From NCBI GenBank assembly GCA_947627215.1, contig CANQVD010000018.1, positions 6,250 through 70,249 of the forward strand: a DNA stretch of 64,000 nt, read 5' to 3'. How positions within the stretch are numbered: position 1 is the first letter of the stretch; the number at the start of each line of letters is the position of its first letter. The notes beneath the pieces were generated by a model, which saw only the letters and a list, made by a program, of their open reading frames with translations, did not search any database and was not told where the DNA came from. The position numbers and the translations under genes are program-made. This stretch comes from an uncultured Eisenbergiella sp. (GTDB taxonomy: Bacteria > Bacillota > Clostridia > Lachnospirales > Lachnospiraceae). Below, in pieces: positions 38,649 through 53,772 of the stretch.

Positions 38649-40346
38649 TCAGTCGATCTTCTTGGTCACGCCGCGGATCTCCAGATACTTGTCCAGATTC
38701 AGGCCGTCGAAGCCGTCGCAGTAAGCCTGCCATACGGCATCGTCGTCCACATCCTGCTGGCCTGCGATGAACAGAGCCTGCTGCTGCGTGAAGTAATCCT
38801 TGATGGAGGTCGCATACTCGGAGTAGATCTCCACATCGTCCAGATCGACCCAGAAGGAATCGATGATGTTCTTGGTCAGATAAGGCTCATAGTACTCCTG
38901 CAGCGCAGCCTTCTCATCGTACAGCGGATGATCCTCCTTGAACTTGAAGCCCAGAGGCATGAACTTGGGCAGCGCCTGAGGCCACAGATTGCTCCAGCCG
39001 TACTTGTTCTGATCTTCCTCGGACATCGTGGAGCTGTCCACGACATAATAATCGTTGACAATGCCGTCCGCCGTCGCCGCGAACGCGGTGGGATCGTCGC
39101 CCTCCTGACGTACCATGACGCCGATGGGGCCCTTGCTGATGGAGATGCCGTTTTCCAGATTGAACACGGTATCGAACCAGCGAACGATGATCTCGGGATG
39201 CTCTGCGTTGTCGGTGATGACAGCCTGCGTCCTGTAAACGGAATTGCCGGTGGTATCTCTCAGCCAGATGCCGCCGTTGTCCGCGTTCAGCACGGGCAGG
39301 AAGTCAAACTCGCCCTTTTCCTCGGTGATCTCCAGACCGGAGAACTCCTGAGAGCCGTAGGCGATGGAGCAGCCGTACAGGTCGCGGTTTCCTTTGCCTT
39401 CCCAGGTAGCGGAATCCTGCGTGGAGATCTCGGTGTCGATCAGGCCTTTTTCATACAGCTTGTTGAACCAGCTTAAGAACTGTCTGTAACCGTCGCTCTC
39501 GGCCGCCCAGGCGGTCTCGCCGTCCTCGGTGACGGTGAAGCCCACGTTGTTCATCGGCACGCCAAAATAACCGGCCATGGCTTCCAGATGCTTGTTGTTG
39601 GGGTCAGTGGAGAACGGGATCTCATCGTTGGGGTCGCCGTTTCCGTTGGCGTCCTGATCCTTGAAGGCCTGCAGGACAGCCTCAAACTCGTCCGTGGTGG
39701 TAGGCATATCCATCCCTACGTTCTCCAGCCAGCGGGTGTTGATGAAGGGGGTGTAACCCACCGTCGTGTCGTCCACGACATAAGGGATCGAGTAAATATG
39801 TCCGTCGGGAGCGGTCATCTTCTCCCGCACGCCGGGCAGATCCAGAACCGCGGAAATGTTGGGCGCGTACTGCGCGAACAGATCCTCCAGCGGGATAAAG
39901 ATCCCCTGATCCACGCCGTAGGTCAGGATCATGTTGTCGGACAGCGTCCAGCCGCCGATCACATCCGCATAGTCGCCGGAGTTCAGATCCAGGTTCAGCC
40001 TCTCGGTAGCGCTCTCATAAGGGAAATACTTCAGATCGATATCCACATTGGTCTGCTCCTTCAGAGCGTCCAGCGTCACGAACTCGCCGGTGGAGCTGGA
40101 ATCGTCCACGAAGATGGAGAAGGTATAATCCCCCTCATCCACGATCGGAAGCCCTTCGGCGTACATGATGCCGTTCACCTTACCGTCCGCATCCACTTCC
40201 GCGGGAGCGGCTTCCTCGGTCTTGCTGTCCGAAGAAGAGCTGTCGGAACTGCTGGAGCTGCTGGAGCTGCCGGAACTTCCGCAGCCCGCCAGTGCAGTCA
40301 CGACCATCACGGCCGTCAGCAATACTGCTACTAACTTTTTCTTCAT
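38649..40346 (-). CDS. Oligosaccharide ABC solute-binding lipoprotein (LplA-like)
   Basis: Lipobox 'LAGC', Ser-rich linker, 'APDGHIYSIP', 'DANGNGDPNDEIP'. Confidence 0.88.
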   Translation of the reverse strand: MKKKLVAVLLTAVMVVTALAGCGSSGSSSSSSSSDSSSSDSKTEEAAPAEVDADGKVNGIMYAEGLPIVDEGDYTFSIFVDDSSSTGEFVTLDALKEQTNVDIDLKYFPYESATERLNLDLNSGDYADVIGGWTLSDNMILTYGVDQGIFIPLEDLFAQYAPNISAVLDLPGVREKMTAPDGHIYSIPYVVDDTTVGYTPFINTRWLENVGMDMPTTTDEFEAVLQAFKDQDANGNGDPNDEIPFSTDPNNKHLEAMAGYFGVPMNNVGFTVTEDGETAWAAESDGYRQFLSWFNKLYEKGLIDTEISTQDSATWEGKGNRDLYGCSIAYGSQEFSGLEITEEKGEFDFLPVLNADNGGIWLRDTTGNSVYRTQAVITDNAEHPEIIVRWFDTVFNLENGISISKGPIGVMVRQEGDDPTAFAATADGIVNDYYVVDSSTMSEEDQNKYGWSNLWPQALPKFMPLGFKFKEDHPLYDEKAALQEYYEPYLTKNIIDSFWVDLDDVEIYSEYATSIKDYFTQQQALFIAGQQDVDDDAVWQAYCDGFDGLNLDKYLEIRGVTKKID

Positions 40347-40412
40347 TCTTTCATCTCCTTTTCTTTTTTTATATCAAACGGCCCCTTCAGCCGCATTGAT
40401 ACCGAAAACGGA

Positions 40413-41342
40413 TCAGCCCTTGACGGAACCGATCATGACGCCCTTGACGAAGTGCTTCTGAATGAACGGATACAGCACCAGTACGGGCACGCTGCTGATG
40501 ATGATCAGGGAGTACTTCATGACCTCGATCAGCTCCTTCTGCGCGTTCATCGCCGCTCTGGCCTCCGCCGTAACGGCGGTCTGGGACAGCGCCGCCTCGT
40601 TGGTGATCAGGATCCTTCGCAGGACCAACTGCAGCGGGAACTTCTGCGAATCGGACAGATAGATCAGGGCGGAGAAGTAGGAGTTCCAGTGGCCTACGCC
40701 GTAGTACAGCACCATGATAGCCGTGATGGCGCCGGACAGGGGCAGCGCGATCTGGAAGAAGAACTTGCCCTGGGTACAGCCGTCGATCTCCGCGGCCTCA
40801 TAGAGCTCCTCGGAAATATTGGACTTGAAGAAGGTCCTCGCCACGATCATATTGTAAACACTCAGGCATCCGGGCAGGATCAGCGCCCACATGGTGTTGA
40901 GCAGGTGGAAGCTTCTGACGACCAGGTAGGTAGGGATCAGGCCGCCGCCGAAGAACATCGTGATCACGTAAAAGATGGTGACGATCTTCTTGCCGGAGAA
41001 CTTATCCCGGGACAGCGCATACGCGGTGGGCAGCGTCACGGCCAGGTTCACCAGCACGCCGCAGACCGTGTATAAAATGGAATTCAGGAAGCTTCGTACG
41101 ATGGAATCGTCCTTGAACACCTCCGCGTAGCCCTTCAGGGTGAAGCCCACGGGCAGCCACAGCACTTTGCCGCCGGACACCGCCGCCGGATCGCTGAAGG
41201 AGGAAATGATGACCCACCACAGCGGATAGGCCACGATGATCAGGATCAGCGTCAGGACGATAAACAGGATCGTATCGAAAATCACGTCTTCCTTACAGCG
41301 CTTGATCTTTTTGGGCTGAACGACTGCATCATTCTTTTTCAT
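40413..41342 (-). CDS. ABC permease (LplC-like)
   Basis: 'EAAEIDG', 'YPFIQKHFVKGVMIGSVKG'. Confidence 0.92.
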   Translation of the reverse strand: MKKNDAVVQPKKIKRCKEDVIFDTILFIVLTLILIIVAYPLWWVIISSFSDPAAVSGGKVLWLPVGFTLKGYAEVFKDDSIVRSFLNSILYTVCGVLVNLAVTLPTAYALSRDKFSGKKIVTIFYVITMFFGGGLIPTYLVVRSFHLLNTMWALILPGCLSVYNMIVARTFFKSNISEELYEAAEIDGCTQGKFFFQIALPLSGAITAIMVLYYGVGHWNSYFSALIYLSDSQKFPLQLVLRRILITNEAALSQTAVTAEARAAMNAQKELIEVMKYSLIIISSVPVLVLYPFIQKHFVKGVMIGSVKG

Positions 41343-41359
41343 GATTTTCCCTCCTTCCC

Positions 41360-42307
41360 TTAGAACAGGCTGTTGCCGGACAGCTTATCCGAAACCGTAT
41401 TGACGATGATCAGCATTACCATGTTCACCAGCGTGTTGAACAGGCCGATGGCAGAGGAATAGGACATGTTGTTGTCGATCAGACCGACCTTATACACGTA
41501 GGTGGAGATGATCTCGGATACGGAAAGGTTCAGGTCGTTCTGCAGCGCGTATGCCTTTTCAAAGCCGATGGAGAGGATGCTGCCGCAGTTCATGATCAGC
41601 AGGATCGTCGCCGTCGGGAGGATGGACGGAAGGTCTATGTAGCGGATCAACTGGAACTTGGTGGCGCCGTCGCACTTGGCCGCCTCATGCAGCTCCGGGC
41701 TGATGCCGGACAGCGCGGCAAAGTAGATGACGGAACTCCAGCCCATGCCCTGCCAGACGCCGGACCAGACGTACAGATGTCTCCAGTACTCCTTCTTCGC
41801 CATGAAGTTGACCGCTTCGCCGCCGAACATCTTGATCACGTTGTTGATAATGCCGACGCTGGGCGAAAGGAACAGGATCAGCATACCGCACATGACGATG
41901 GTGGAAATGAAGTTGGGCGCATAGGTGACGGTCTGGATCACCTTGCGGTATTTCGCATGACGGAAGGAATTCAGCATCAGCGCCAGGACGATCGGGATCG
42001 GGAAGGAAACGATCAGGCTGTACAGGCTTAAGATCAGCGTATTCGAGATCGTCTGACCGAAATACGGCGATTCGAAGAAGCGGACGAAGTAACGCATGCC
42101 GACCCATTCACTGCCCCAGATACCGGCCCTCGCGTTGAATTTGCGGAACGCGATCTGCACGCCGTACATGGGAATGTAGCTGAAGATGAACGTCAGCACA
42201 ATGCCCGGAATGCAGAACATCCACAGGGACCAGTCTCTTTTGAGAAGCTGCATGAAGGTGTACTTCTTCGGCTTGATGGTTCCTGCGCCTTTGTTTTTTG
42301 CTTTCAT
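41360..42307 (-). CDS. ABC permease (LplB-like)
   Basis: 'YIPMYGVQIAF', 'EAAKCDGA', 'ISTYVYKVG'. Confidence 0.92.
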   Translation of the reverse strand: MKAKNKGAGTIKPKKYTFMQLLKRDWSLWMFCIPGIVLTFIFSYIPMYGVQIAFRKFNARAGIWGSEWVGMRYFVRFFESPYFGQTISNTLILSLYSLIVSFPIPIVLALMLNSFRHAKYRKVIQTVTYAPNFISTIVMCGMLILFLSPSVGIINNVIKMFGGEAVNFMAKKEYWRHLYVWSGVWQGMGWSSVIYFAALSGISPELHEAAKCDGATKFQLIRYIDLPSILPTATILLIMNCGSILSIGFEKAYALQNDLNLSVSEIISTYVYKVGLIDNNMSYSSAIGLFNTLVNMVMLIIVNTVSDKLSGNSLF

Positions 42308-42580: not shown

Positions 42581-44041
42581 TCATCTTTGCAGGCAGAATA
42601 CCCGGCCGATGGGAGCCTTTTCGGCGCGCTTCCCGCAGGGCCTTCCGGCGCGGACCGTAAGGCCGCCCTGCCCCTTTATGAAGGGGAGCTTTTCTCCGCT
42701 GTCCAGCGCAGTGACCGCTCCGACCGCTCCCTCGTAAGGGATCCATACCTCTTCCTCCACCGCGCAGTCCTCCCGCGGGAAGGTCTGGATGGCGTATACG
42801 GTATCCTCCTTTTTCGTGAAGGCGATGCCGTCCTTTTTGTAAGGGGCGCACACGCGGGTGCCGTAGATGGCATCCCCGTAAACGGAGAGCCACTCGCCCA
42901 TGCCCAGCAGACTTTTCACCGCGCCCTTCGGCAGGCACCCGTTGGGCTGCGGGCCCACGTTGATGGCCAGGTTGCCGCCTTTGGCCACGATATCCGCCAG
43001 CAGACAGATCACCTCCCTGGGGCTCTTGTAGCTGTCCTCATAGGCGAAGGAGAAAGAAGTTCCCAGCGTGATGCAGCTTTCCCAGGGGATGGAAAGGGGC
43101 TTCTCCGGCACGCACTGCTCCGGCGTCACATAGTTCTCATAGGGGCCGCCCACCGTCCGGTCGGCGCACAGCAGGCCCGGCTGGTATTTGCGCAGCCGCT
43201 CGATGACCTCGCCCAGCCGGATGTCCTGACCGTTTCTTTCGCACACCCAGCCCGCGTCGAACCACATGCCGTCCAGATGGCCGTACCTGGTGCCCAGCTC
43301 CATGATCTGATTCTGGGTGAACGTCACGAACCGTTCCCACTCCTCCGGATTCTCCTTCGGATCGTAGGAAGGGCCCCGGTTCTGATAGGTTCCCTTTTCG
43401 CCCGCTTCCTTCCAATAGCTGTCCACATGCCAGTCCGCTTTGGAAAAATAGGGGATGATCCCCAGCCCCCTCTTGCGGAACGACTCGAACAGATGCGCGC
43501 AGATATCCGCGTACCGGTTCGCCGAAAACGGGCAGTCCGGCGCCGTGACCTTGTAGTCCGAATACTGACTGTCCCACATGCAGAAGCCGTCGTGATGCTT
43601 GGTGGTGAAGAGCAGATATCGGGTTCCCGCCGTTTTGGCGATGTCCGCCCACTTTTCCGGTTCAAAGCGGGCCGGATTGAAGGTTTTATTCAGGGCGAAA
43701 TACTGTTTTTTCAGTTCCTCTCCCGTGATCTCCCAGTCGATTCCGCGCCGGGACCACACGGCGTCGGCGTCCGAAAGCGCCCAGGATTCCACGATGCCCC
43801 ACTGGCTGTAGGGGCCCCAGTGCATCATCAGCCCCAGCTTCTGGTCCCGGAACCATTCCAGCTTTTTGAGCACCTTCGGATCCTCGGGCCACACGTACCG
43901 GTCCTCCCGGCTATAGTTATGCACGCCGTCCTGTACGGCCTCTTCCTTTTCCTTTTTTTCCTCTTCCCCGTCCACAGGCATTTCCGCCGCGGGCAGAGCG
44001 TCCTTCTTTTCTTCTCCCACGATGTCTTTCCTTTCTCTCAC
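42581..44041 (-). CDS. GH29 alpha-L-fucosidase family protein
   Basis: 'KLGLMMHWG', 'TTKHHDGF', nucleophile 'WFDAGW'; start uncertain (GTG 44041 or ATG 43981). Confidence 0.88.
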   Translation of the reverse strand: MRERKDIVGEEKKDALPAAEMPVDGEEEKKEKEEAVQDGVHNYSREDRYVWPEDPKVLKKLEWFRDQKLGLMMHWGPYSQWGIVESWALSDADAVWSRRGIDWEITGEELKKQYFALNKTFNPARFEPEKWADIAKTAGTRYLLFTTKHHDGFCMWDSQYSDYKVTAPDCPFSANRYADICAHLFESFRKRGLGIIPYFSKADWHVDSYWKEAGEKGTYQNRGPSYDPKENPEEWERFVTFTQNQIMELGTRYGHLDGMWFDAGWVCERNGQDIRLGEVIERLRKYQPGLLCADRTVGGPYENYVTPEQCVPEKPLSIPWESCITLGTSFSFAYEDSYKSPREVICLLADIVAKGGNLAINVGPQPNGCLPKGAVKSLLGMGEWLSVYGDAIYGTRVCAPYKKDGIAFTKKEDTVYAIQTFPREDCAVEEEVWIPYEGAVGAVTALDSGEKLPFIKGQGGLTVRAGRPCGKRAEKAPIGRVFCLQR

Positions 44042-45182: not shown

Positions 45183-46199
45183 TCACCGGTCCAGCCGCCC
45201 GCGCAAAAACGCCGTCAGCGTATGGCTCGTATCACAGCCGTATTCCCAGCACATGATCCCGCGCAGTCCCTTCTCCTTCAGATAATCGACCTTATATCCC
45301 AGGGACTCCTCGTCGTCATAGCTGATAAAGCAGTCCCCATTGAACAGCCAGGGGGCCTTCGCGTCGTCGTCCCAATACCGGACAAAGCCGTTTTTGTTGA
45401 TATATTTTTCCACCAGCTCCCCGTAATGATGACCGCCGGTGCCCACGCTCTTCGCCATCTGGCACAGCCCGTGGTCCCTGCCGCATACGCCGGTCCAGGT
45501 ACGGGCATAAAAGGCCGCCCCGATGACCAGCTTTTCCGCCGGGACACCGGCCTGCAAAAACTCCCGCACCGCCTTGTCCGCGCAGGCGTCCGACAGATCC
45601 GCAGGCGTAGCGTACAGGCTGGTGTGATGTCCCGCGGCCGTGGAAAACCCGCCCCGCAGATCATATGTCATGATCTGCACGTAGTCCAGATACGCGGCCG
45701 CCCGGTCCATCTGCGTGTTGCGGACGAAATAGGAATCCCCGCCCGCGGCAATGGAAAGAAGATACCGCCCCGGCTCCTTTGCCTCCATGGCCCCGCGCAG
45801 CTCCTGCAAAAGCAGCGTGAAATTCTCCTTATCCGCCGGGTCGGCGCCGATCTCGGCCACGGACATGCAGGGATATTCCCAGTCGATATCGATGCCGTCC
45901 AGACCGTAACGCTCCACCAGTTCCATGGATGTCTCCGCGAAGAGACGGCGTCCCTCCCCGGTATAGGCCGCTTCGGAAAATCCGCCCGCGCCCCAGCCGC
46001 CTACAGAAAGCAGGATCTTCATCTCCGGATTCAGCCGGCGCAGACGCGCGATGGCCTCCGCGTATTCCGGATGCTCCCAGATCACCCTGCCCTCCGCCAC
46101 ATGGGCGAAGGCGATATTGATCACATCGATGCAGGCCGCTTCCTCTTCCTTTACCTGCGGCAGATTCCTGTCCACCACATATTCGATCAGTTGCTTCAT
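45183..46199 (-). CDS. GH18 chitinase/endo-beta-N-acetylglucosaminidase-like protein
   Basis: Intact DxDxE 'DGIDIDWEYP', 'SVGGW', 'MTYD'; no signal peptide. Confidence 0.9.
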   Translation of the reverse strand: MKQLIEYVVDRNLPQVKEEEAACIDVINIAFAHVAEGRVIWEHPEYAEAIARLRRLNPEMKILLSVGGWGAGGFSEAAYTGEGRRLFAETSMELVERYGLDGIDIDWEYPCMSVAEIGADPADKENFTLLLQELRGAMEAKEPGRYLLSIAAGGDSYFVRNTQMDRAAAYLDYVQIMTYDLRGGFSTAAGHHTSLYATPADLSDACADKAVREFLQAGVPAEKLVIGAAFYARTWTGVCGRDHGLCQMAKSVGTGGHHYGELVEKYINKNGFVRYWDDDAKAPWLFNGDCFISYDDEESLGYKVDYLKEKGLRGIMCWEYGCDTSHTLTAFLRGRLDR

Positions 46200-46229
46200 G
46201 TTGACCTCCCGTCGGGGCAACCCCCGTCC

Positions 46230-48584
46230 CTATCCGCGCTGCAGTCTGGCCAGAAGCTGCGCCGCGGCGCCCACCTGATAGCCGCAGAACGCATAGACGC
46301 CCCTGCCGTCCTCCCGCACCGCCACACCCAGCGGATATTTGTTCTCCTCCAGACCCATGGCCCCGGCCGCCGCAGCGGCACCGTCGAAGTCCGGCGTTTC
46401 AATGAGCCTCACGCCCGCCGCCTCCTGCAAAAGACGTTCCAGCGTTCCGAACGCTCTGGGGCCTCTGCGGCTGACCAGACAGATCTCCTCCTGATGCTGT
46501 CTGACGTCGCCGATCCGCTCCAGAAGCTCATTCAGGATATGTTCCGTGGGCTCCTCGCCCTCACAGATCCAGATGCAGACCGCCCGGCGGCCTTTCGGGA
46601 GTGCTTCCGGCATCACCGGCGGCAATGCGCGCGCGTCCTCCTCCGGCTCCTGCGCCGAAGGTCGGACGAGACCGATCTGCCTTCCCTCTGGTCCCAGCGC
46701 GAAGCAAAGCTCCCGTACGCGCTGGTTCCCGTCCTTCGACCGCACCGGAAGGATCAACTGATATTCTCCCGGGGCGAGCGAAAGCTCCAGCCGACCGTCC
46801 GCCCAGGCCGCACCGCGCAGCCACAGAGGACGGTACTGCCCGTCCTCCAGACGGTTCAGGGCATAATCGGTCCCGTAATTCCAGGCGGCCGCGCCTTCCG
46901 CGTCCCGCAGGACCAGCTTCGCCTTCGGCCCTTCCTCCGTCCTGCACGCCGGGCGAAATCCGCCGTTCCGGAAATACTGCGCCTCGCCGGTCACCGGATC
47001 CAGCCGCGCCGGAATGCCGAAGGTGCGGGCCACGGCGAGAAACAGGTTCTTCTGATCGCGAACGCTTCCCTTTCCGCTCCGCACCGCATTGACGGGGTTG
47101 ATGCGAAGCGTGTCGTAGGCATCCTCCGTCGGCCTCTCCAGTCCGGCACAGACCTCTTCCCAGATCCGCTCCGGCCGCTCCTCAAAGTCGGCACGCCTCC
47201 CGGCGAACATCTCCTCCAGCTCCTTCCGCCAGCAGGAAAGCTCCTCCAGCTCCAGCCGGGGATTCAGCACACAGGAGACGAAAACGTCCTCCGGAATCCC
47301 GTCCCGCCCGGCGTAGGCCATGGCATGGGTGAAATGCGCTTCCAGCACGTCCGCCCGCAGATCGTAATAGTCCTTCTGCGTCAGCGCCTGCAGTAGCTTT
47401 ATCCGGTAGGGGCTGTCGTCCTTTTCCAGAAAAGCGATCACTTCCCCGAAATTACCGCCCGCCGTGCGCAGGATCTGCGCCGCCTCCGGAAACGCCGCCG
47501 CCCGGTCCTCCTGATAATAGGAAGCGAGCCGCTTTTCCCGGCTTTCCTTCTGCGCCTCCAGCTCCGCCTTATCCTCCTGATAGGTACGGCCCGCTTTCGT
47601 CGCGTCTCCCTTCGGCGCGAAAAAGCTGTACTCCCTCCAGACTTCCTCCGGCGTCCGCTCCAGCGTCACACAGAGTTCTCCGTCCCGCTCCGCCTCCGTC
47701 AGGGTCCGCAGAAGCTGTCCGTCCCGCACGCAGGATACCTGCAGGCTCCCGCAGCCCAGGCGCATGCGGAAATGACCGTTTTCATCCGACGGCACGGTCG
47801 CGATCGTCCCGTAATGACCGTAGTTGAGCACTTCCAGCCGCACCGGCGTTCCCGCCAGCGGCTCACCCTCCGGCCCCTTCACCGCAAAATCCACCTGCAC
47901 GGTCTTCGCATAATGAGCGGTCACGTTGTAAAAGGTCGCGCATCCGTTCCGGGCGATCACGCTGTCATCCGGATGCAGCAGTCCGAAGCTTCTGGCATGC
48001 ACCAGCATGGCCCGGGACGCGGGCATGTCGAACCATCCCTTGTCCAGCTCCGGCTCCGGCTCGCAGGCGCCCAGATACCGCCAGACGCCGCCGCAGTACA
48101 CCTCCACCCAGGCATGATTGTCGTCACAGTGGGACCAGAGCGGCGCATAGACCTGCCTCGCCGGGATCCCCACGCTGCGCAGCACCGTCACCACAAAGGT
48201 GCTCTCCTCTCCGCAGCGCCCAAACGCGCTCTTATAGACGGTCATGGCGTTGGCCGTCCTGGGATCCGCCAGATGATAGGTCGCCTGATGCGCGCACCAG
48301 TCATTCACCCGCAGGATCGCCTCCTCCGCAGAAAGTCCCCCGAGCAGAGGCATCACCAGGTCATAAAAGAACCGCCTGCAGTCCTCGATCCGCTCATTGT
48401 TGATCCGGTAGGCCGCCACATTTTCCAGAAAAACGTCCTCCGGCAGCTCTCTGCACCAGTCCGCGTTCTCCCGCAGGAAACAGGCATGCCGGGCAAACCC
48501 CAGCAGGGTTTCCTCCGACACGTCCGTCTTATCACAGTAGGGCATGGAACTCCGGTAATACTCCATGATCTTCTTTTCCAGCAT
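46230..48584 (-). CDS. Transglutaminase-like (papain-fold) protein, candidate peptide:N-glycanase
   Basis: 'GRCGEES', 'NHAWVEVY', 'LGACEPE'; second, Cys-less TG-like repeat 'ARTFGIPARL'. Confidence 0.75.
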   Translation of the reverse strand: MLEKKIMEYYRSSMPYCDKTDVSEETLLGFARHACFLRENADWCRELPEDVFLENVAAYRINNERIEDCRRFFYDLVMPLLGGLSAEEAILRVNDWCAHQATYHLADPRTANAMTVYKSAFGRCGEESTFVVTVLRSVGIPARQVYAPLWSHCDDNHAWVEVYCGGVWRYLGACEPEPELDKGWFDMPASRAMLVHARSFGLLHPDDSVIARNGCATFYNVTAHYAKTVQVDFAVKGPEGEPLAGTPVRLEVLNYGHYGTIATVPSDENGHFRMRLGCGSLQVSCVRDGQLLRTLTEAERDGELCVTLERTPEEVWREYSFFAPKGDATKAGRTYQEDKAELEAQKESREKRLASYYQEDRAAAFPEAAQILRTAGGNFGEVIAFLEKDDSPYRIKLLQALTQKDYYDLRADVLEAHFTHAMAYAGRDGIPEDVFVSCVLNPRLELEELSCWRKELEEMFAGRRADFEERPERIWEEVCAGLERPTEDAYDTLRINPVNAVRSGKGSVRDQKNLFLAVARTFGIPARLDPVTGEAQYFRNGGFRPACRTEEGPKAKLVLRDAEGAAAWNYGTDYALNRLEDGQYRPLWLRGAAWADGRLELSLAPGEYQLILPVRSKDGNQRVRELCFALGPEGRQIGLVRPSAQEPEEDARALPPVMPEALPKGRRAVCIWICEGEEPTEHILNELLERIGDVRQHQEEICLVSRRGPRAFGTLERLLQEAAGVRLIETPDFDGAAAAAGAMGLEENKYPLGVAVREDGRGVYAFCGYQVGAAAQLLARLQRG

Positions 48585-48644
48585 CGCTTCTCCCCGCACG
48601 CTTCTCATCGCGTGAAATCTTACATTCTCCCGTTTTTTCCTCTG

Positions 48645-49934
48645 TCACGCATTCTGCGTCAACGCTTCCCCGCTGCCCAGGTTGCAGGCGATCTCTCCTT
48701 CCAGCTCCAGCTTCAGCACCGTGGTCAGCGGATGCATCTGCATATGCGCCGCCCAGATCCATAAGGTCCCCGCGATGCCCTCCCACGGAATGGAACCCGT
48801 GTAGGAAAACGCCAATTCCTCTCCCGTGTGCAGGACGGTGACGCGCTTCACCCGTGTCCTGACGCCCTTGACACAGACGTGCTCCGCGGGCCTGTCATAG
48901 AGGAAAAGGTAGATGGTCTTTTTATCCTCCGAAATCGTGCTGCCGCCCAGGAACTGCTGATAGGTCAGCCCCCTGCCGGTATCGTAGACCGCTTCCTCAT
49001 TGTCCCGGATGAACGCGCCCAGATCCTCCAGCACCTTCACCTGCCGCTCATCCAGCGTGCCGTCCTCCTTCGGTCCCACATCCAGCAGCAGATTGCCGCC
49101 CAGCGTCAGGCAGTCGCAGAAAATGCGGATCACCTGTCTGCTGGTCTTATAATCATTGTCAGAAGGCCGGTATCCCCAGGAATCGTTGATCGTGACGCAG
49201 AATTCCCACGGTCCTTTCGGTCCCAGGATCGGGATGCCCTGCTCCGGCGTGGCGTAATCGCCGTAGCCCTGCATCCTCGAATTGCATACCACATCCGGAT
49301 TCAGGGAATGCAGATACGCCCTGAAGGCAGGCATATTCCACTGCGCGGCGCTGCGCTCCCAGTCGCCGTCAAACCACAGAAGATCGATCTTTCCGTAATT
49401 TGTCATCAGCTCCCTGATCTGATCGTTGTTGAACTGCAGAAATTCCTTCCACTTTTCCGGATCCTCCGGGCCGCCCGCGGGAGAGCCGAATACGTCCTTC
49501 AGGCAGTCTTCCGGTTTGGCGCCTTCCGGATAAATGCTGCGGTAGCGCTCATCTGTCCAGTCCAGCAGGGAATAATAAAGCCCCACCTTCAGCCCTGCCT
49601 CCCGCATGGCTTCCACATATTCCTTCACCAGATCCCGACCCGCCGGCGTTTTCTTCACCACGCTCAGGTCGGAATACTTCGTATCGAACAGCGCCACGCC
49701 GTCATGATGCTTGGAAGTCATCACCGCATAGCGCGCCCCGGCGCGCACGAACAGCTCCGCCCAGGCCTTCGGATCATACCGGGAGGCGGTAAATCCCTCA
49801 CACTGCTTCATATAATCCGCATGGGAGATCTGGCCGTTGTGAAAAGACCAGGATTCGGACACGTCTCCCACCGCATAGATCCCGTAATGAATGAAAATAC
49901 CCAGCTTCGCTTTCCGAAACCATTCCTGCATCAT
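48645..49934 (-). CDS. GH29 alpha-L-fucosidase family protein
   Basis: 'KLGIFIHYG', 'TSKHHDG', 'LWFDGDW', 'GGNLLLDVGP'. Confidence 0.88.
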   Translation of the reverse strand: MMQEWFRKAKLGIFIHYGIYAVGDVSESWSFHNGQISHADYMKQCEGFTASRYDPKAWAELFVRAGARYAVMTSKHHDGVALFDTKYSDLSVVKKTPAGRDLVKEYVEAMREAGLKVGLYYSLLDWTDERYRSIYPEGAKPEDCLKDVFGSPAGGPEDPEKWKEFLQFNNDQIRELMTNYGKIDLLWFDGDWERSAAQWNMPAFRAYLHSLNPDVVCNSRMQGYGDYATPEQGIPILGPKGPWEFCVTINDSWGYRPSDNDYKTSRQVIRIFCDCLTLGGNLLLDVGPKEDGTLDERQVKVLEDLGAFIRDNEEAVYDTGRGLTYQQFLGGSTISEDKKTIYLFLYDRPAEHVCVKGVRTRVKRVTVLHTGEELAFSYTGSIPWEGIAGTLWIWAAHMQMHPLTTVLKLELEGEIACNLGSGEALTQNA

Positions 49935-50025
49935 GTCCGTTTCTCTCCCCTTCCCCAAAAAACGTTCCCGGAAGCGTCCGCGTTCCTTTGCACCCGTAAC
50001 GAACGGGACCCCCCCCTCGCTCTTT

Positions 50026-52428
50026 TCACGCCGTAAGGAACGCGACCGTCCCCATATCATTGTCCGCCAGCCGCTCCAGCGCTTCTGAAAGGGCGCCGCC
50101 CTCCATCAGCTCCAGCGCATAGCGAAATTCCCCGAACCCGGACAGATCCATCTTGAAATTGGTCTCCCAGGTATTGTTCATGATCCAGCTATAGACAGGC
50201 CGCCGGTTGTTCTCCTCTTTCCCGTCGCACAGCACGATGGGATGGTGCTCCATCTGTCCCATATACAAAAGCGGCGTATCCAGCGCGCTGATCAGCACAT
50301 TCCTTTCCGGCATATGATACAGAACGCCCTGATCGGCCATATAATACTCCATGTTGGTGCCCGGAAGCTGGTCGATGCCCGGCCGCATGGGGACGCCGCC
50401 GTTTCGAATGTAAAGCGCCGCGTCCGGCAGCGCCAGGGACAGCGGCAGGAAAACGCTCTCGATGTCCTCGCTCAGCAGCTTGGCAATCCGGCAGGTAAAC
50501 TCCACCCGGGGCAGACCCTTGTACAGCTTCAGGATGACGCTGCAAAAACGCGTTCCCGGCAGATCAAAGTCCAGCTCCGCTCTGGAAAAAACAGGCCCAT
50601 TGTCCAGGATCCGGATGTTTTTCAGGACGCCCTGATGCCGCACCGCGTGCAGGCCCCGGACGTTCCGCCCCAGGCGGTTCCTCTCGCCGTAGGCGTCGCC
50701 CCGGACCGTCGTCCGCTCCAGGATCGGCGTGAAAAAGGTCTCCAAGCCGCCCTTCAGAAGCTCCGTCCCCCGTTTTTTATCAAAAAAGGAAGTGATCCCC
50801 TCCCCGATCCGGTATCCGATCCGGAACCAGTCGTTCTCCAGCCCGTAAGGCAGCTTCCAGGATTCGGTATCGTAGCCGTTGACGATATCCCGGACCCGGT
50901 CCGCGCCGACCCAGGCGGTGCGGCTGTAGAGTCCCTTCGGCTCCCACGGCTGTTCTTCATATCGGAAGGTCTTCTCTTCCAGCGCTTCAAATTCCGCCAG
51001 AAAGCTCACCAGCACTCCTCTGGGATGTGCGCTGATCTGCGCCCGAAGCTCCTCCCCGGTCTTTTCATCCGTCACCTTCACCGCGCGGAGGTTTCCCGAT
51101 TCCACATAGAACTCCACCGGCAGCGTCCGCCGCTGACGGCTCATGGAAACCGCCTTCACCCGCCCGGAATGATCGTAATAGCGCAGCCGGTCCCCCAGGC
51201 GATGGCACAGCTCAATCTTTCGCATCGCCGCGGTCTCGCAGGCCTTCGACGCATAGCCGGTCTTCCGGATGTCCAGATCCGCCACCATCGTATCATAGGG
51301 ATTGCTGATCGTGGAGGAATGGCCCCAGGTGTGCTCCGCGTACAAAAGCGCGCTTTCCTCGCCCTCCTCCAGATGCGCGTTCCACGGTTCCTCACAGTGC
51401 CCAGCCTCCAGCACCTTCCGCTCCAGCACATCCCCGATATGGAACAGCCGCAGGGCCTCCCGGTAATGCTTCACCGCGTAGGGCGTGGAGCCCACGCCGT
51501 TTCCCCACCAGTCGTTCATCGCGCCCCGGTACACTGGCGCGTCCGCGGTCTTCTGCCGGATCAGGTCGTACAGCTCCTGCAGCGTCACCATCCGCAGGCG
51601 CAAATGATCCCCATACGCCTCATTGAACGCCCGGACCGTATGCGCGATCCCCGGATTCGCCGGAGCGTTGTCGGAAAAGACGCCGCTGACGCTGGTGATA
51701 TAAAAATCATACGGATAGCCGCTCTGCTCATATTCCTCCACGCTGGCGCAGAGATTTCGATACAGGCTCTCCAGGGGACTGCCCTTCCCGTTTTCGCCGA
51801 AATACCGCTCCGTCATGGAGTTGTCGTACCGGTTGAACACGATGCCCAGAGCGTTCCCGAGATTGTAGTGCTCCCCGTTCCAGACCAGAAGCCGGTCCCC
51901 GTTTTCCCTTTCCCAGAAAAACGGTTTCTGATTCTGATACAGCGGATACATCCCGTGATGGGTATGGATGTTGGTATACAAAAACTCCACGCCGTTATCC
52001 AAAAGCACGTCCCGGGCTCCCAGAGAAATTCCGTTGATATCCGCGTTCATGGCGCACTTCACGGCGATGCCCTCCTGCGCGAAGCGCGCCAGAAGCCCCG
52101 CCGTCTTCCGCCCCAGGATCCCGCAGTCCGCCAGATCGCAGAAATTCAGATAGCTGGCGGAAATGCCGATCCTCCCCCGCTTCACCAGCGAGAAAAAATC
52201 CGCCCGTTCCGCATCATCCGCCTGTTCCAAAAATTTTTCCACGCAGAAAAGCGTCTCGCAGTTCCATTTGAAATGCTTTTCCGGCCCTCCGTCCGAAACG
52301 GCCGCCCTCAGCAGAGCCGTCACGTTCCGGATGTTCTGGACCTGATTGTAGATCACCTGCTCCTGCAGGTCTGTATAGCCGATGTCCGTGTGGGAATGAT
52401 GTACGATATAGATGTTCCTGATATGCAA
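50026..52428 (-). CDS. GH38-like (alpha-mannosidase N-terminal domain) glycoside hydrolase
   Basis: Metal-binding 'HHSHTDIGYT', 'EHTWG', 'NNTWETNF'; TTG start inferred. Confidence 0.7.
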   Translation of the reverse strand: MHIRNIYIVHHSHTDIGYTDLQEQVIYNQVQNIRNVTALLRAAVSDGGPEKHFKWNCETLFCVEKFLEQADDAERADFFSLVKRGRIGISASYLNFCDLADCGILGRKTAGLLARFAQEGIAVKCAMNADINGISLGARDVLLDNGVEFLYTNIHTHHGMYPLYQNQKPFFWERENGDRLLVWNGEHYNLGNALGIVFNRYDNSMTERYFGENGKGSPLESLYRNLCASVEEYEQSGYPYDFYITSVSGVFSDNAPANPGIAHTVRAFNEAYGDHLRLRMVTLQELYDLIRQKTADAPVYRGAMNDWWGNGVGSTPYAVKHYREALRLFHIGDVLERKVLEAGHCEEPWNAHLEEGEESALLYAEHTWGHSSTISNPYDTMVADLDIRKTGYASKACETAAMRKIELCHRLGDRLRYYDHSGRVKAVSMSRQRRTLPVEFYVESGNLRAVKVTDEKTGEELRAQISAHPRGVLVSFLAEFEALEEKTFRYEEQPWEPKGLYSRTAWVGADRVRDIVNGYDTESWKLPYGLENDWFRIGYRIGEGITSFFDKKRGTELLKGGLETFFTPILERTTVRGDAYGERNRLGRNVRGLHAVRHQGVLKNIRILDNGPVFSRAELDFDLPGTRFCSVILKLYKGLPRVEFTCRIAKLLSEDIESVFLPLSLALPDAALYIRNGGVPMRPGIDQLPGTNMEYYMADQGVLYHMPERNVLISALDTPLLYMGQMEHHPIVLCDGKEENNRRPVYSWIMNNTWETNFKMDLSGFGEFRYALELMEGGALSEALERLADNDMGTVAFLTA

Positions 52429-52608: not shown

Positions 52609-53772
52609 TCAAATATATGTCCCGCTGGTGTCCGCATAGATCTGGGCTTCCTTCTTCACCACGGTGGAATTTCTGATCTTCTCCTGCAAAAGCGCGTAGA
52701 AACGATCATCCGGGAAGTTCTTCACATCCACGGTCTCTCCTGTCCAGGCGCTCAGATGGATCGAATTGGAGATCGTCAGTCCGTTTATGCCCTCTTCCCC
52801 GGGCGCCAGAAGCTTCGTTCCGTTCAAAACAGCGGAAGCGAAATTGTTCAGGATACCCACATGCTGCGCGCCGCCGGAGCCGTCCACGGGGACCGTACAG
52901 TTCCAGCATTCGGGCGAGGCGAACGGCACCGTATTGGTCCTGTTGAACTCCCGCTCCGATATCACGTTGCGGCGGAACAGGATCTGTCCGTTTTCAACCA
53001 CCACTCTGCCCATATCGCAGGCGATCTCCAGGCGGTTCGTGCCGGGCGCTTCTCCGGTGGACGTAATATACTCTCCGGTGGTCCCGCTGTCATATTCCAT
53101 GAACGCCATCACATCGTCTTCCACTTCGATATTATAATATTTCCCGAAATACGCCCTGGCGAAGATCCGATCCGGCATTCCGAACATCCACTGCCACAGA
53201 TCGAGCTGATGCGGATTCTGATTGATCAGCGCGCCGCCGCCCTCGGTCTTCCAGGCAGAACGCCAGGTACTGCTGTCATGATACGCCTGGGGCCGATACC
53301 AGTCTGTGATGATCCAGGTGATCCTTTTGATATGTCCGAGCTCCCCACGGGCGACCATGTCCCGGACCTTCTGGTAAACAGGATTCGTTCTCTGATTATA
53401 CATAATGCCGAACAGCTTTCCGGAAGCGGCCGCAGCCTCGTTCATCTCCCTGACCTGACGCGTATAAACGCCCGCGGGCTTCTCCGTAATCACATGAAGC
53501 CCATGGCGGAACGCCTCTATCGCAAGAGACGGATGATCATAGTGATAAACAGCGATGAGAACTACGTCGCACAGTCCGCTCTCAAACAGCGCCGCGGCAT
53601 GATCGAACACCGGAATCTGCGGGTAAACGCTCCGCAGCGCCTCCCGTCTGGCAGGGGATATATCGCAGACCGCTCCCACTTTCATCGCCGGCACTTTGCC
53701 CTCCATCACATTCCTCACATGGGAAGTCCCCATATTGCCGTAGCCGATGATGCCGATTCGTAATTTGTCCAT
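52609..53772 (-). CDS. Gfo/Idh/MocA-family oxidoreductase
   Basis: Rossmann 'GIIGYGNMG', 'EKPAG', 'GGGALINQNPHQLD'. Confidence 0.92.
   Translation of the reverse strand: MDKLRIGIIGYGNMGTSHVRNVMEGKVPAMKVGAVCDISPARREALRSVYPQIPVFDHAAALFESGLCDVVLIAVYHYDHPSLAIEAFRHGLHVITEKPAGVYTRQVREMNEAAAASGKLFGIMYNQRTNPVYQKVRDMVARGELGHIKRITWIITDWYRPQAYHDSSTWRSAWKTEGGGALINQNPHQLDLWQWMFGMPDRIFARAYFGKYYNIEVEDDVMAFMEYDSGTTGEYITSTGEAPGTNRLEIACDMGRVVVENGQILFRRNVISEREFNRTNTVPFASPECWNCTVPVDGSGGAQHVGILNNFASAVLNGTKLLAPGEEGINGLTISNSIHLSAWTGETVDVKNFPDDRFYALLQEKIRNSTVVKKEAQIYADTSGTYI

Follow-up and report, generated by a model that had tools for sequence, protein, structure and literature searches.

What a protein with a transglutaminase fold does among genes for the import and breakdown of glycopeptides is the question raised by a locus of an uncultured Eisenbergiella sp. 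(Lachnospiraceae; assembly GCA_947627215.1). The stretch of DNA analysed here, 64,000 nucleotides of contig CANQVD010000018.1 and hereafter referred to as the window, encodes a transglutaminase-fold protein of 792 amino acids (TG, an abbreviation used also for its family). As the original prediction had stated, the gene lies between those of a fucosidase of glycoside hydrolase family 29 (GH29) and a GH18 protein, and both neighbours were confirmed by Pfam. It is proposed that TG is an amidase with a Cys-His active site, which cleaves the bond between N-acetylglucosamine and asparagine (GlcNAc-Asn) in imported glycopeptide remnants, replacing glycosylasparaginase; a probability of about one half is assigned to this proposal.

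TG contains a Transglut_core domain (PF01841; residues 93-177), scoring 87.4 bits against a cut-off of 23, and belongs to a large, functionally uncharacterised bacterial family. A word-based search returned more than 7,700 relatives, all named no more specifically than “transglutaminase-like domain-containing protein,” and when the first 240 residues served as the query of an exhaustive HMMER search, 714 representative clusters were recovered at E <= 1e-30. The window protein carries the full family signature, comprising the motifs GRCGEES, HCDDNHAWVE and GACEPE, a length of about 750-900 residues, a second core that is dead and an EPTEH domain at the C-terminus. The three motifs on which the original prediction was built, GRCGEES, NHAWVEVY and WRYLGACEPE, are all present, and exceed chance by their conservation in three sequence sets: 33 full-length homologues (34-75% identity), 40 N-terminal domains, and 150 representatives with pairwise identity below 50%. 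GRCGEES is retained in 142 and HCDDNHAWVE in 123 of the 150 representatives. In the sets of 33 and 40 sequences, the invariant residues of the active-site region are R131, C132, G133, E134, E135, S136, R151, Q152, H160, C161, N164, H165, W167, E169, G180, A181, C182, E183, and P184, and the polar invariants of the N-terminal domain also include D26, R68, N70, E72, N102, W104, Y111, R117, and T118. In AlphaFold2 (AF2) models Cys132 (codon 48213-48215), the presumed nucleophile, begins the helix 132-145, and His165 begins the strand 165/166-172. An invariant loop, W158-x-H160-C161-D-D-N164, precedes NHAWVEVY.

The third residue of the triad, an Asp expected about 15-17 residues past the His, was not found in TG, and Gly180 occupies this position. 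HMMER alignments place Gly180 opposite the triad Asp of mouse and yeast peptide:N-glycanase (PNGase) and Cys182-Glu183 opposite the C-E that follows this Asp, in agreement with the original prediction, which had noted the Gly. The replacement is family-wide, with Gly in every readable sequence and Asp in none of the 150 representatives. Retention of the Asp-less site throughout the family marks the missing Asp as characteristic of a functional, conserved active site rather than as a sign of decay. By its sequence TG is a cytoplasmic protein: no N-terminal hydrophobic signal was found in TG or in the neighbouring enzymes, including GH18, and an N-terminal hydrophobic stretch occurs in only 7 of the 150 representatives.

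The invariant residues His160-Cys161 (codons 48131-48139) and Cys182 (codon 48063-48065) flank His165 and Gly180 and may serve in a disulfide or a metal site.

The genomic surroundings of the family were analysed in 80 genome loci and four assembly loci, 83 of which carry TG; they originate from Lachnospiraceae, Oscillospiraceae, Christensenellaceae, Paenibacillus, and Caldicoprobacter. All open reading frames (ORFs) were clustered without prior labels, and the cluster representatives were then annotated. Components of ATP-binding cassette (ABC) or Opp importers are encoded in 60 of the 83 loci, CutC in 46, M17 leucyl aminopeptidase and GH29 fucosidase in 32 each, a DeoR regulator in 20, GH18 in 13, a protein resembling carbohydrate-binding module family 9 (CBM9) in 12, a ROK kinase in 8, a NagB-like deaminase in 5, and an M28/M20 peptidase in 4. 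The presence of GH29 and GH18 provides the co-occurrence with glycan genes that the original prediction had proposed to look for. TG is mostly located directly after CutC or adjoining GH18, and closes operons. Three layouts recur: SBP5-OppBCDF-(GH29)-DeoR-M17-CutC-TG; AraC/Cache-SBP1-permeases-CutC-TG-GH29-M17; and CBM9-like / permeases-SBP1-GH29-GH29-GH18-TG(-M17), which is the type of the window. One locus consists of TG and GH18 only, amid ribosome-biogenesis genes. In the genome containing the window, GH29 is encoded at only six loci, and GH18, M17, and CutC at a single locus each; the chance of co-location with such a gene within 22 kb is about 3% or less in this genome.

These observations strongly tie the TG family to the uptake of fucosylated, Asn-linked remnants of glycopeptides and to their degradation. 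The kind of neighbours, namely M17, CutC, ROK kinase, NagB and exo-type GH18, points to trimmed core stubs, such as (Fuc)GlcNAc-Asn or chitobiosyl-Asn peptides, and less to whole N-glycans. The original idea of N-glycan release from imported glycopeptides is retained in its link to glycopeptide import and is less favoured as regards the release of whole glycans.

Release of the last GlcNAc from Asn is known only for glycosylasparaginases of the N-terminal nucleophile (Ntn) type and for secreted enzymes of the PNGase F/A types. Asparaginase_2 (PF01112), the family marking the Ntn-type enzyme, is absent from the genome of the window (97% complete), from all five named TG carrier genomes, from all six TG genomes in a sample of 401 genomes of the same phylum, and from 26 of the 28 TG genomes in a sample of 201 Lachnospiraceae genomes. 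Since most TG genomes are without the usual glycosylasparaginase, a GlcNAc-Asn amidase is the most economical role for TG. This distribution is consistent with, and not proof of, displacement of glycosylasparaginase by TG.

The link between the Ntn amidase and TG is provided by CutC (PF03932), which is found alongside one or the other. The phylum sample contains Asparaginase_2 in 14 genomes, CutC in 43 and both in six, and in five of these six the two genes are located within 5 kb of each other (0.1-4.5 kb). In Bacilli these loci follow the order PRD/EIIA regulator, Asparaginase_2, phosphotransferase system (PTS) EIIC and CutC; they resemble the GlcNAc-Asn locus type reported for Enterococcus faecalis (Combret et al. 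2023, PMID 37977353, cited in PMC11976118), which may include cutC. Like the CutC-type TG loci, the Asparaginase_2/PTS loci (L087-L091) place CutC beside an amidase, a proposed one in the case of TG, and a dedicated importer, but the importer is a PTS, the amidase is Asparaginase_2, and TG-fold protein, M17 and GH29 are missing. The only genome of the phylum sample with both TG and CutC carries them on different contigs, and the TG-CutC linkage is drawn from the 83 loci.

A characterised pathway with the same operon logic is alf-2 of Lacticaseibacillus casei (AlfH, AlfC, PepV, AsnA2, SugK, and AsdA), which for Fuc-alpha1,6-GlcNAc-Asn relies on a transporter, on AlfC as the GH29 enzyme, on a peptidase, on AsnA2 as the glycosylasparaginase of the Ntn type and on SugK as the ROK kinase (PMC6960285). 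Both alf-2 and the TG loci comprise an importer, GH29, a cytoplasmic peptidase, an amidase step, proposed in the case of TG, and, in some of the loci, a ROK kinase. They differ in the amidase, as the place of the Ntn-type AsnA2 would be taken by TG with CutC or GH18, and in the transporter, which is a permease of the major facilitator superfamily in alf-2 and an ABC or Opp system in the TG loci.

The two partners of TG are mutually exclusive, as none of the 83 loci contains both CutC and GH18 beside it. The window GH18 protein is predicted to be exo-type, as it aligns over its full length (345 residues; E = 1.4e-111) with PDB entry 6inx, an “N-acetylglucosaminidase” by its PDB molecule name only, and matches it better than endo-type enzymes. 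In the maximum-likelihood tree the window protein belongs to a four-member, all-GH18-linked clade (SH-aLRT 99), and the GH18 label requires 6 changes on the tree, compared with a mean of 12.3 in shuffles. The changes on the tree, together with the lack of joint loci, indicate that the partner was switched several times and never combined. The TG of the window is the GH18-linked variant of the family. As for CutC, which is also listed with the nix N-glycan cluster of Xanthomonas (PMC6718126), it seems to belong to the GlcNAc-Asn pathway and not to copper homeostasis.

Two further loci show particular gene contents. In L004:10001-22520, TG heads a block of genes for GH20, GH94 (phosphorylase), phosphomutase, GH3, GH125, and GH38; the GH94 enzyme, if it is a chitobiose phosphorylase, would imply free chitobiose, a product of an amidase and not of an endo-glycosidase. 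In L002, a mouse-gut contig with the layout of the window (TG-GH18-CBM9-GH29-M17-ABC), a large, secreted endo-N-acetylglucosaminidase of family GH85 that contains PKD and F5/8 domains is encoded 8 kb upstream (L002:1-2327). GH85 was not found in the genome of the window.

In the proposed reaction, TG would hydrolyse the beta-aspartyl-glucosylamine bond of imported glyco-asparagine or of short glycopeptide remnants of N-glycoproteins, yielding Asp, or a peptide with Asp, together with either GlcNAc or chitobiose. As the nucleophile, with His165 as a general base, Cys132 would act on the amide in the side chain of the glycosylated Asn. This would set free a glycosylamine, from which ammonia and either GlcNAc or chitobiose would arise by decay or by processing, and the beta-aspartyl thioester would be hydrolysed to Asp. 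A third catalytic residue, if any, would have to come from elsewhere; the candidates by invariance are Asp162/Asp163, Glu183/Glu185, and Asp26/Glu72 of the helical subdomain. TG would thereby fill the step performed by the unrelated Ntn-type glycosylasparaginase in Bacilli, lysosomes, and L. casei. The proposed order of steps in the window begins with the ABC importer, by which fucosylated core glycopeptides would enter the cell; core fucose would then be stripped by both GH29 enzymes and mannose trimmed by the GH38-like enzyme, and finally TG and the exo-type GH18 would dismantle the chitobiosyl-Asn core. This scheme is similar to the order in lysosomes, which runs from fucosidase and aspartylglucosaminidase to GH18 chitobiase and GH38 mannosidase.

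A broader proposal is made tentatively, at somewhat less than even odds: that TG represents a new class of bacterial cytoplasmic glycoamidase, which has a transglutaminase fold, is independent of Png1, employs Cys and His without Asp, and together with CutC or an exo-type GH18 replaces the Ntn glycosylasparaginase in gut Clostridia and Paenibacillus. The literature searched contains nothing relevant on a bacterial transglutaminase-fold PNGase or on CutC with glycosylasparaginase, and the earlier statement that such an activity is not known to have been described for this fold in bacteria agrees with it.

Several observations weigh against the assignment of TG as a GlcNAc-Asn amidase. The triad Asp is absent from every sequence of the family examined, the sequence similarity to PNGase is statistically insignificant (E = 0.047 with a single sequence and 1.7 with a profile), and the nearest folds are annotated as putative cysteine proteases or are true proteases such as LapG. 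None of CutC, GH18, M17, and GH29 is present in 16 of the 83 loci, many of which are short contigs, and the sampled genomes are related and hence not independent. Two Lachnospiraceae genomes contain both TG and Asparaginase_2, and Asparaginase_2 is rare in this family as a whole (6 of 201 genomes). Owing to this rarity and to the two double carriers, its absence from TG genomes is weak evidence, to be described as “mostly absent” and not as anti-correlation. The displacement argument, moreover, proceeds by guilt by association via CutC.

The relation of TG to the eukaryotic PNGases had been the core of the original prediction, which considered it a candidate cytoplasmic PNGase with an active-site signature like that of Png1/NGLY1. 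These enzymes employ a catalytic triad made up of Cys, His and Asp and provide a precedent for cleavage of the GlcNAc-Asn amide by a transglutaminase fold (PMC9102325); they also carry, on the N-terminal side of the core, a zinc-binding domain with a pair of CxxC motifs (PMC9102325, PMC6222260), as well as a C-terminal extension in common with Rad4 and a surface for Rad23 binding (PMC6222260). According to Krishnan et al., the nearest non-eukaryotic relatives of PNGase are archaeal, not bacterial (PMC6222260). TG resembles eukaryotic PNGase (Png1, NGLY1; PDB 1x3w, 3esw, and 2f4m) in its transglutaminase fold and cytoplasmic location, in the Cys on the GRCGE helix, the His in the H-x-W-x-E strand and the C-E after the third-residue site, and, if the present proposal is true, in its target, the GlcNAc-Asn amide. 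It differs by the invariant Gly in place of Asp, by the absence of the CxxC zinc domain and of Rad23, PUB or PAW modules, by its layout, consisting of a duplicated core and beta-sandwich unit followed by a thioredoxin-like domain, and by being set in an operon for catabolism and not in the quality control of proteins.

Mouse and yeast PNGase were the sole transglutaminase-fold PDB entries matched by sequence (phmmer E = 0.047, 0.41, and 0.48), and a search with the family profile left PNGase at E = 1.7. No CxxC motif occurs anywhere in the 792 residues of TG. The Foldseek search for the whole protein gave mainly the beta-sandwich (3e8v), long alignments of poor rmsd with TG2 and FXIII, and thioredoxin-like matches; as it was uninformative on the core, the N-terminal domain was modelled apart. 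The first match of this domain was 3isr, a putative cysteine protease of Cytophaga, followed by TglA, 3kd4, TgpA, and LapG, while the PNGase entries 2f4o, 3esw and 2f4m ranked 12th, 18th, and 21st. A structural check of the kind suggested with the original prediction has borne out a transglutaminase fold but not PNGase as the closest one. The closest folds (3isr, 3kd4, TgpA 6g4h, and LapG 4fgo) have the Cys-His core in common with TG; in contrast to it, they keep the Asp, lack GRCGEES, HCDDNH and GACEPE, and are not linked to operons for glycan or peptide import. None of the four was matched by the sequence search with TG. With Gly in place of the triad Asp, no CxxC motif, at best a borderline sequence similarity and a Foldseek rank of 12, membership in Png1/NGLY1 was rejected, and TG is not filed under this family. 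The identity of TG as an Ntn glycosylasparaginase was likewise rejected, as the protein has no PF01112 match and could be a functional analogue only.

The nearest folds give some ground for regarding TG as a cysteine peptidase directed at glycopeptides, an endo- or carboxypeptidase that would cut next to the glycosylated Asn and complement M17, the sugar-Asn bond being cut otherwise or never. Besides the “putative cysteine proteases” 3isr and 3kd4 and the true protease LapG, the co-occurrence of the family with importers of peptides and with peptidases (M17 and M28), as well as the name “putative cysteine protease” among the database names, fits such a role. However, the GlcNAc-Asn bond would then be left without an enzyme in the TG genomes, and the minimal operons, consisting of an importer, CutC and TG, would yield no usable sugar. 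The operons also hold the GlcNAc-catabolic ROK kinase and NagB, and CutC of Bacilli pairs with an amidase, not with a peptidase; a peptidase is thus considered unlikely. The same ROK kinase and NagB, pointing to GlcNAc as a product, argue against action on a different amide or acyl group, for example in N-acetyl removal, transamidation or ligation, or on gamma-glutamyl or isoaspartyl peptides delivered by an Opp-type importer. The transglutaminase fold does serve many acyl-transfer reactions, many loci are without any glycosidase, and in Escherichia coli an isoaspartyl peptidase of the Asparaginase_2 family is linked to an Opp-like importer. Still, the operons themselves include GH29 in 32 loci and GH18 in 13 loci, and nothing in the loci is suggestive of glutathione or cross-linking, which makes this explanation rather improbable.

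The eukaryotic cytosolic route consists of PNGase, an endo-N-acetylglucosaminidase (ENGase) and GH38, and the GH18 and GH38-like proteins of the window echo it. Together with the local resemblance to GRCGE, H-x-W-x-E-V-Y and A-C-E, this could be taken to indicate a true PNGase of the Png1/NGLY1 type, freeing whole N-glycans from glycoproteins or long glycopeptides. Such an enzyme is made very unlikely by the family-wide change of Asp to Gly, the missing zinc motifs, the E-values and Foldseek ranks given above, neighbours suggestive of small, trimmed substrates, and the archaeal affinity of the nearest non-eukaryotic relatives (PMC6222260). Finally, the incomplete triad and the clearly degenerate second core would be expected of a pseudo-enzyme, a non-catalytic binding or scaffold protein, but Cys132, His165 and about 30 residues around them are strictly invariant across the 150 representatives, as is typical of a working site, and this explanation is hardly credible.

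Remnants of N-glycoproteins are a major nutrient of gut bacteria, and a glycoamidase function of TG, if true, would supply a step missing from what is mapped of N-glycan catabolism in Lachnospiraceae, Oscillospiraceae, and Paenibacillus. A family of more than 700 sequence clusters would obtain its first function, and the transglutaminase fold would have been put to deglycosylation a second time, independently and with an unusual Asp-less site. The CutC family, including human CUTC, would move from copper homeostasis to GlcNAc-Asn catabolism and obtain a testable handle, and enzymes of this kind could possibly serve as deglycosylation reagents for core-stub glycopeptides.

The features of the locus are listed in Table 1.

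Table 1. Features of TG and of the co-oriented gene block in the window, with loci of other Bacillota genomes linking CutC to Asparaginase_2.
Feature	Position	Strand	Basis
TG gene, 792 aa from the first ATG	46230..48608	-	ORF list and translation; PF01841, E 9.7e-25
N-terminal helical subdomain and catalytic transglutaminase core, residues 1-235	47904..48608	-	AF2 secondary structure, Foldseek
GRCGEES, residues 130-136	48201..48221	-	Invariant in 33/33 and 40/40 homologues, in 142/150 representatives
NHAWVEVY with His165, residues 164-171	48096..48119	-	Sequence alignments
WRYLGACEPE, residues 176-185	48054..48083	-	HMMER alignments
First beta-sandwich, residues ~236-330, CarboxypepD_reg-like	47619..47903	-	PDB 3e8v match
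Second, degenerate transglutaminase core, residues 468-536	47001..47207	-	Pfam Transglut_core, E 6.5e-6
C-terminal thioredoxin/peroxiredoxin-like domain, residues ~670-792	46233..46601	-	Foldseek: PrxQ, ResA, TlpA-type
GFO/IDH/MocA oxidoreductase, first gene in co-oriented block	52609..53772	-	Pfam
Distant GH38-like protein, putative alpha-mannosidase, 808 aa	50026..52452	-	Pfam GH38N, E 7.6e-7, weak
GH29 alpha-L-fucosidase (b)	48645..50060	-	Pfam, E 3e-89, and PDB relatives
GH18 partner gene	45183..46220	-	Pfam GH18, E 7e-68; likely true start Met8
CBM9-like cytoplasmic protein, 339 aa	44126..45145	-	Pfam CBM9_1, E 6e-10
GH29 alpha-L-fucosidase (a)	42581..44041	-	Pfam, E 5e-81, and PDB relatives
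ABC importer, whole	38649..42307	-	Pfam matches
ABC permeases, two	41360-42307 and 40413-41342	-	Pfam
Solute-binding protein, 565-aa lipoprotein	38649-40346	-	Pfam and lipoprotein-type signal
CutC-Asparaginase_2 loci, other Bacillota genomes	L087:8713-10424, L088:6054-11599, L090:4663-13128		

The window has a G+C content of 57%, and TG is single-copy in the source genome of 4.04 Mb. The gene had originally been delimited as 46230-48584; its presence stands, but the upper end so defined corresponds to the second ATG (Met9) and the first ATG extends the gene to 48608, leaving the start uncertain by 8 codons. The genes of the block follow the order MocA oxidoreductase, GH38-like, GH29, TG, GH18, CBM9-like, GH29, two ABC permeases, and binding protein. 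TG is separated by 9 bp from the downstream GH18 and by 36 bp from the upstream GH29 (b), the latter overlapping the GH38-like gene by 35 bp. A PDB sequence search gave no match for the 808-residue GH38-like protein, which may be a member of a distant, uncharacterised mannosidase-like family. No PDB relative was found by sequence for the CBM9-like protein; its gene is kept in 12 GH18-type TG loci and is often divergent from the importer.

The full-length AF2 model of TG was obtained with a pLDDT of 86 and a pTM of 0.88, and the separately modelled N-terminal domain with a pLDDT of 83.6. The first beta-sandwich matches PDB 3e8v (E = 2e-7 with the single sequence and 2e-15 with the profile), a fragment of a “possible transglutaminase-family protein” of Bacteroides fragilis and the top Foldseek match of the full-length model. 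It is followed in the model by a helical region and then by the second core remnant with its beta-sandwich. The Cys-less second repeat noticed originally was recovered, residues 55-151 aligning with 438-535 (BLASTP E = 1e-4) with Cys132 facing a Gly, and overlaps the second Transglut_core match. Neither the His segment nor a nucleophile Cys is present in this second core, which is a genuine but dead duplicate.

The C-terminal thioredoxin-like domain has no redox Cys pair. It carries the motif G684-x-E686-P-T-x-H690, invariant in the 33 homologues, and EPT[EQ]H[VI]LNE is one of two peptides that were selected as the best conserved in the family. The E-P-T-x-H presumably sits roughly where peroxiredoxins carry Cys-Pro-Thr, and the domain may contain a second functional site.

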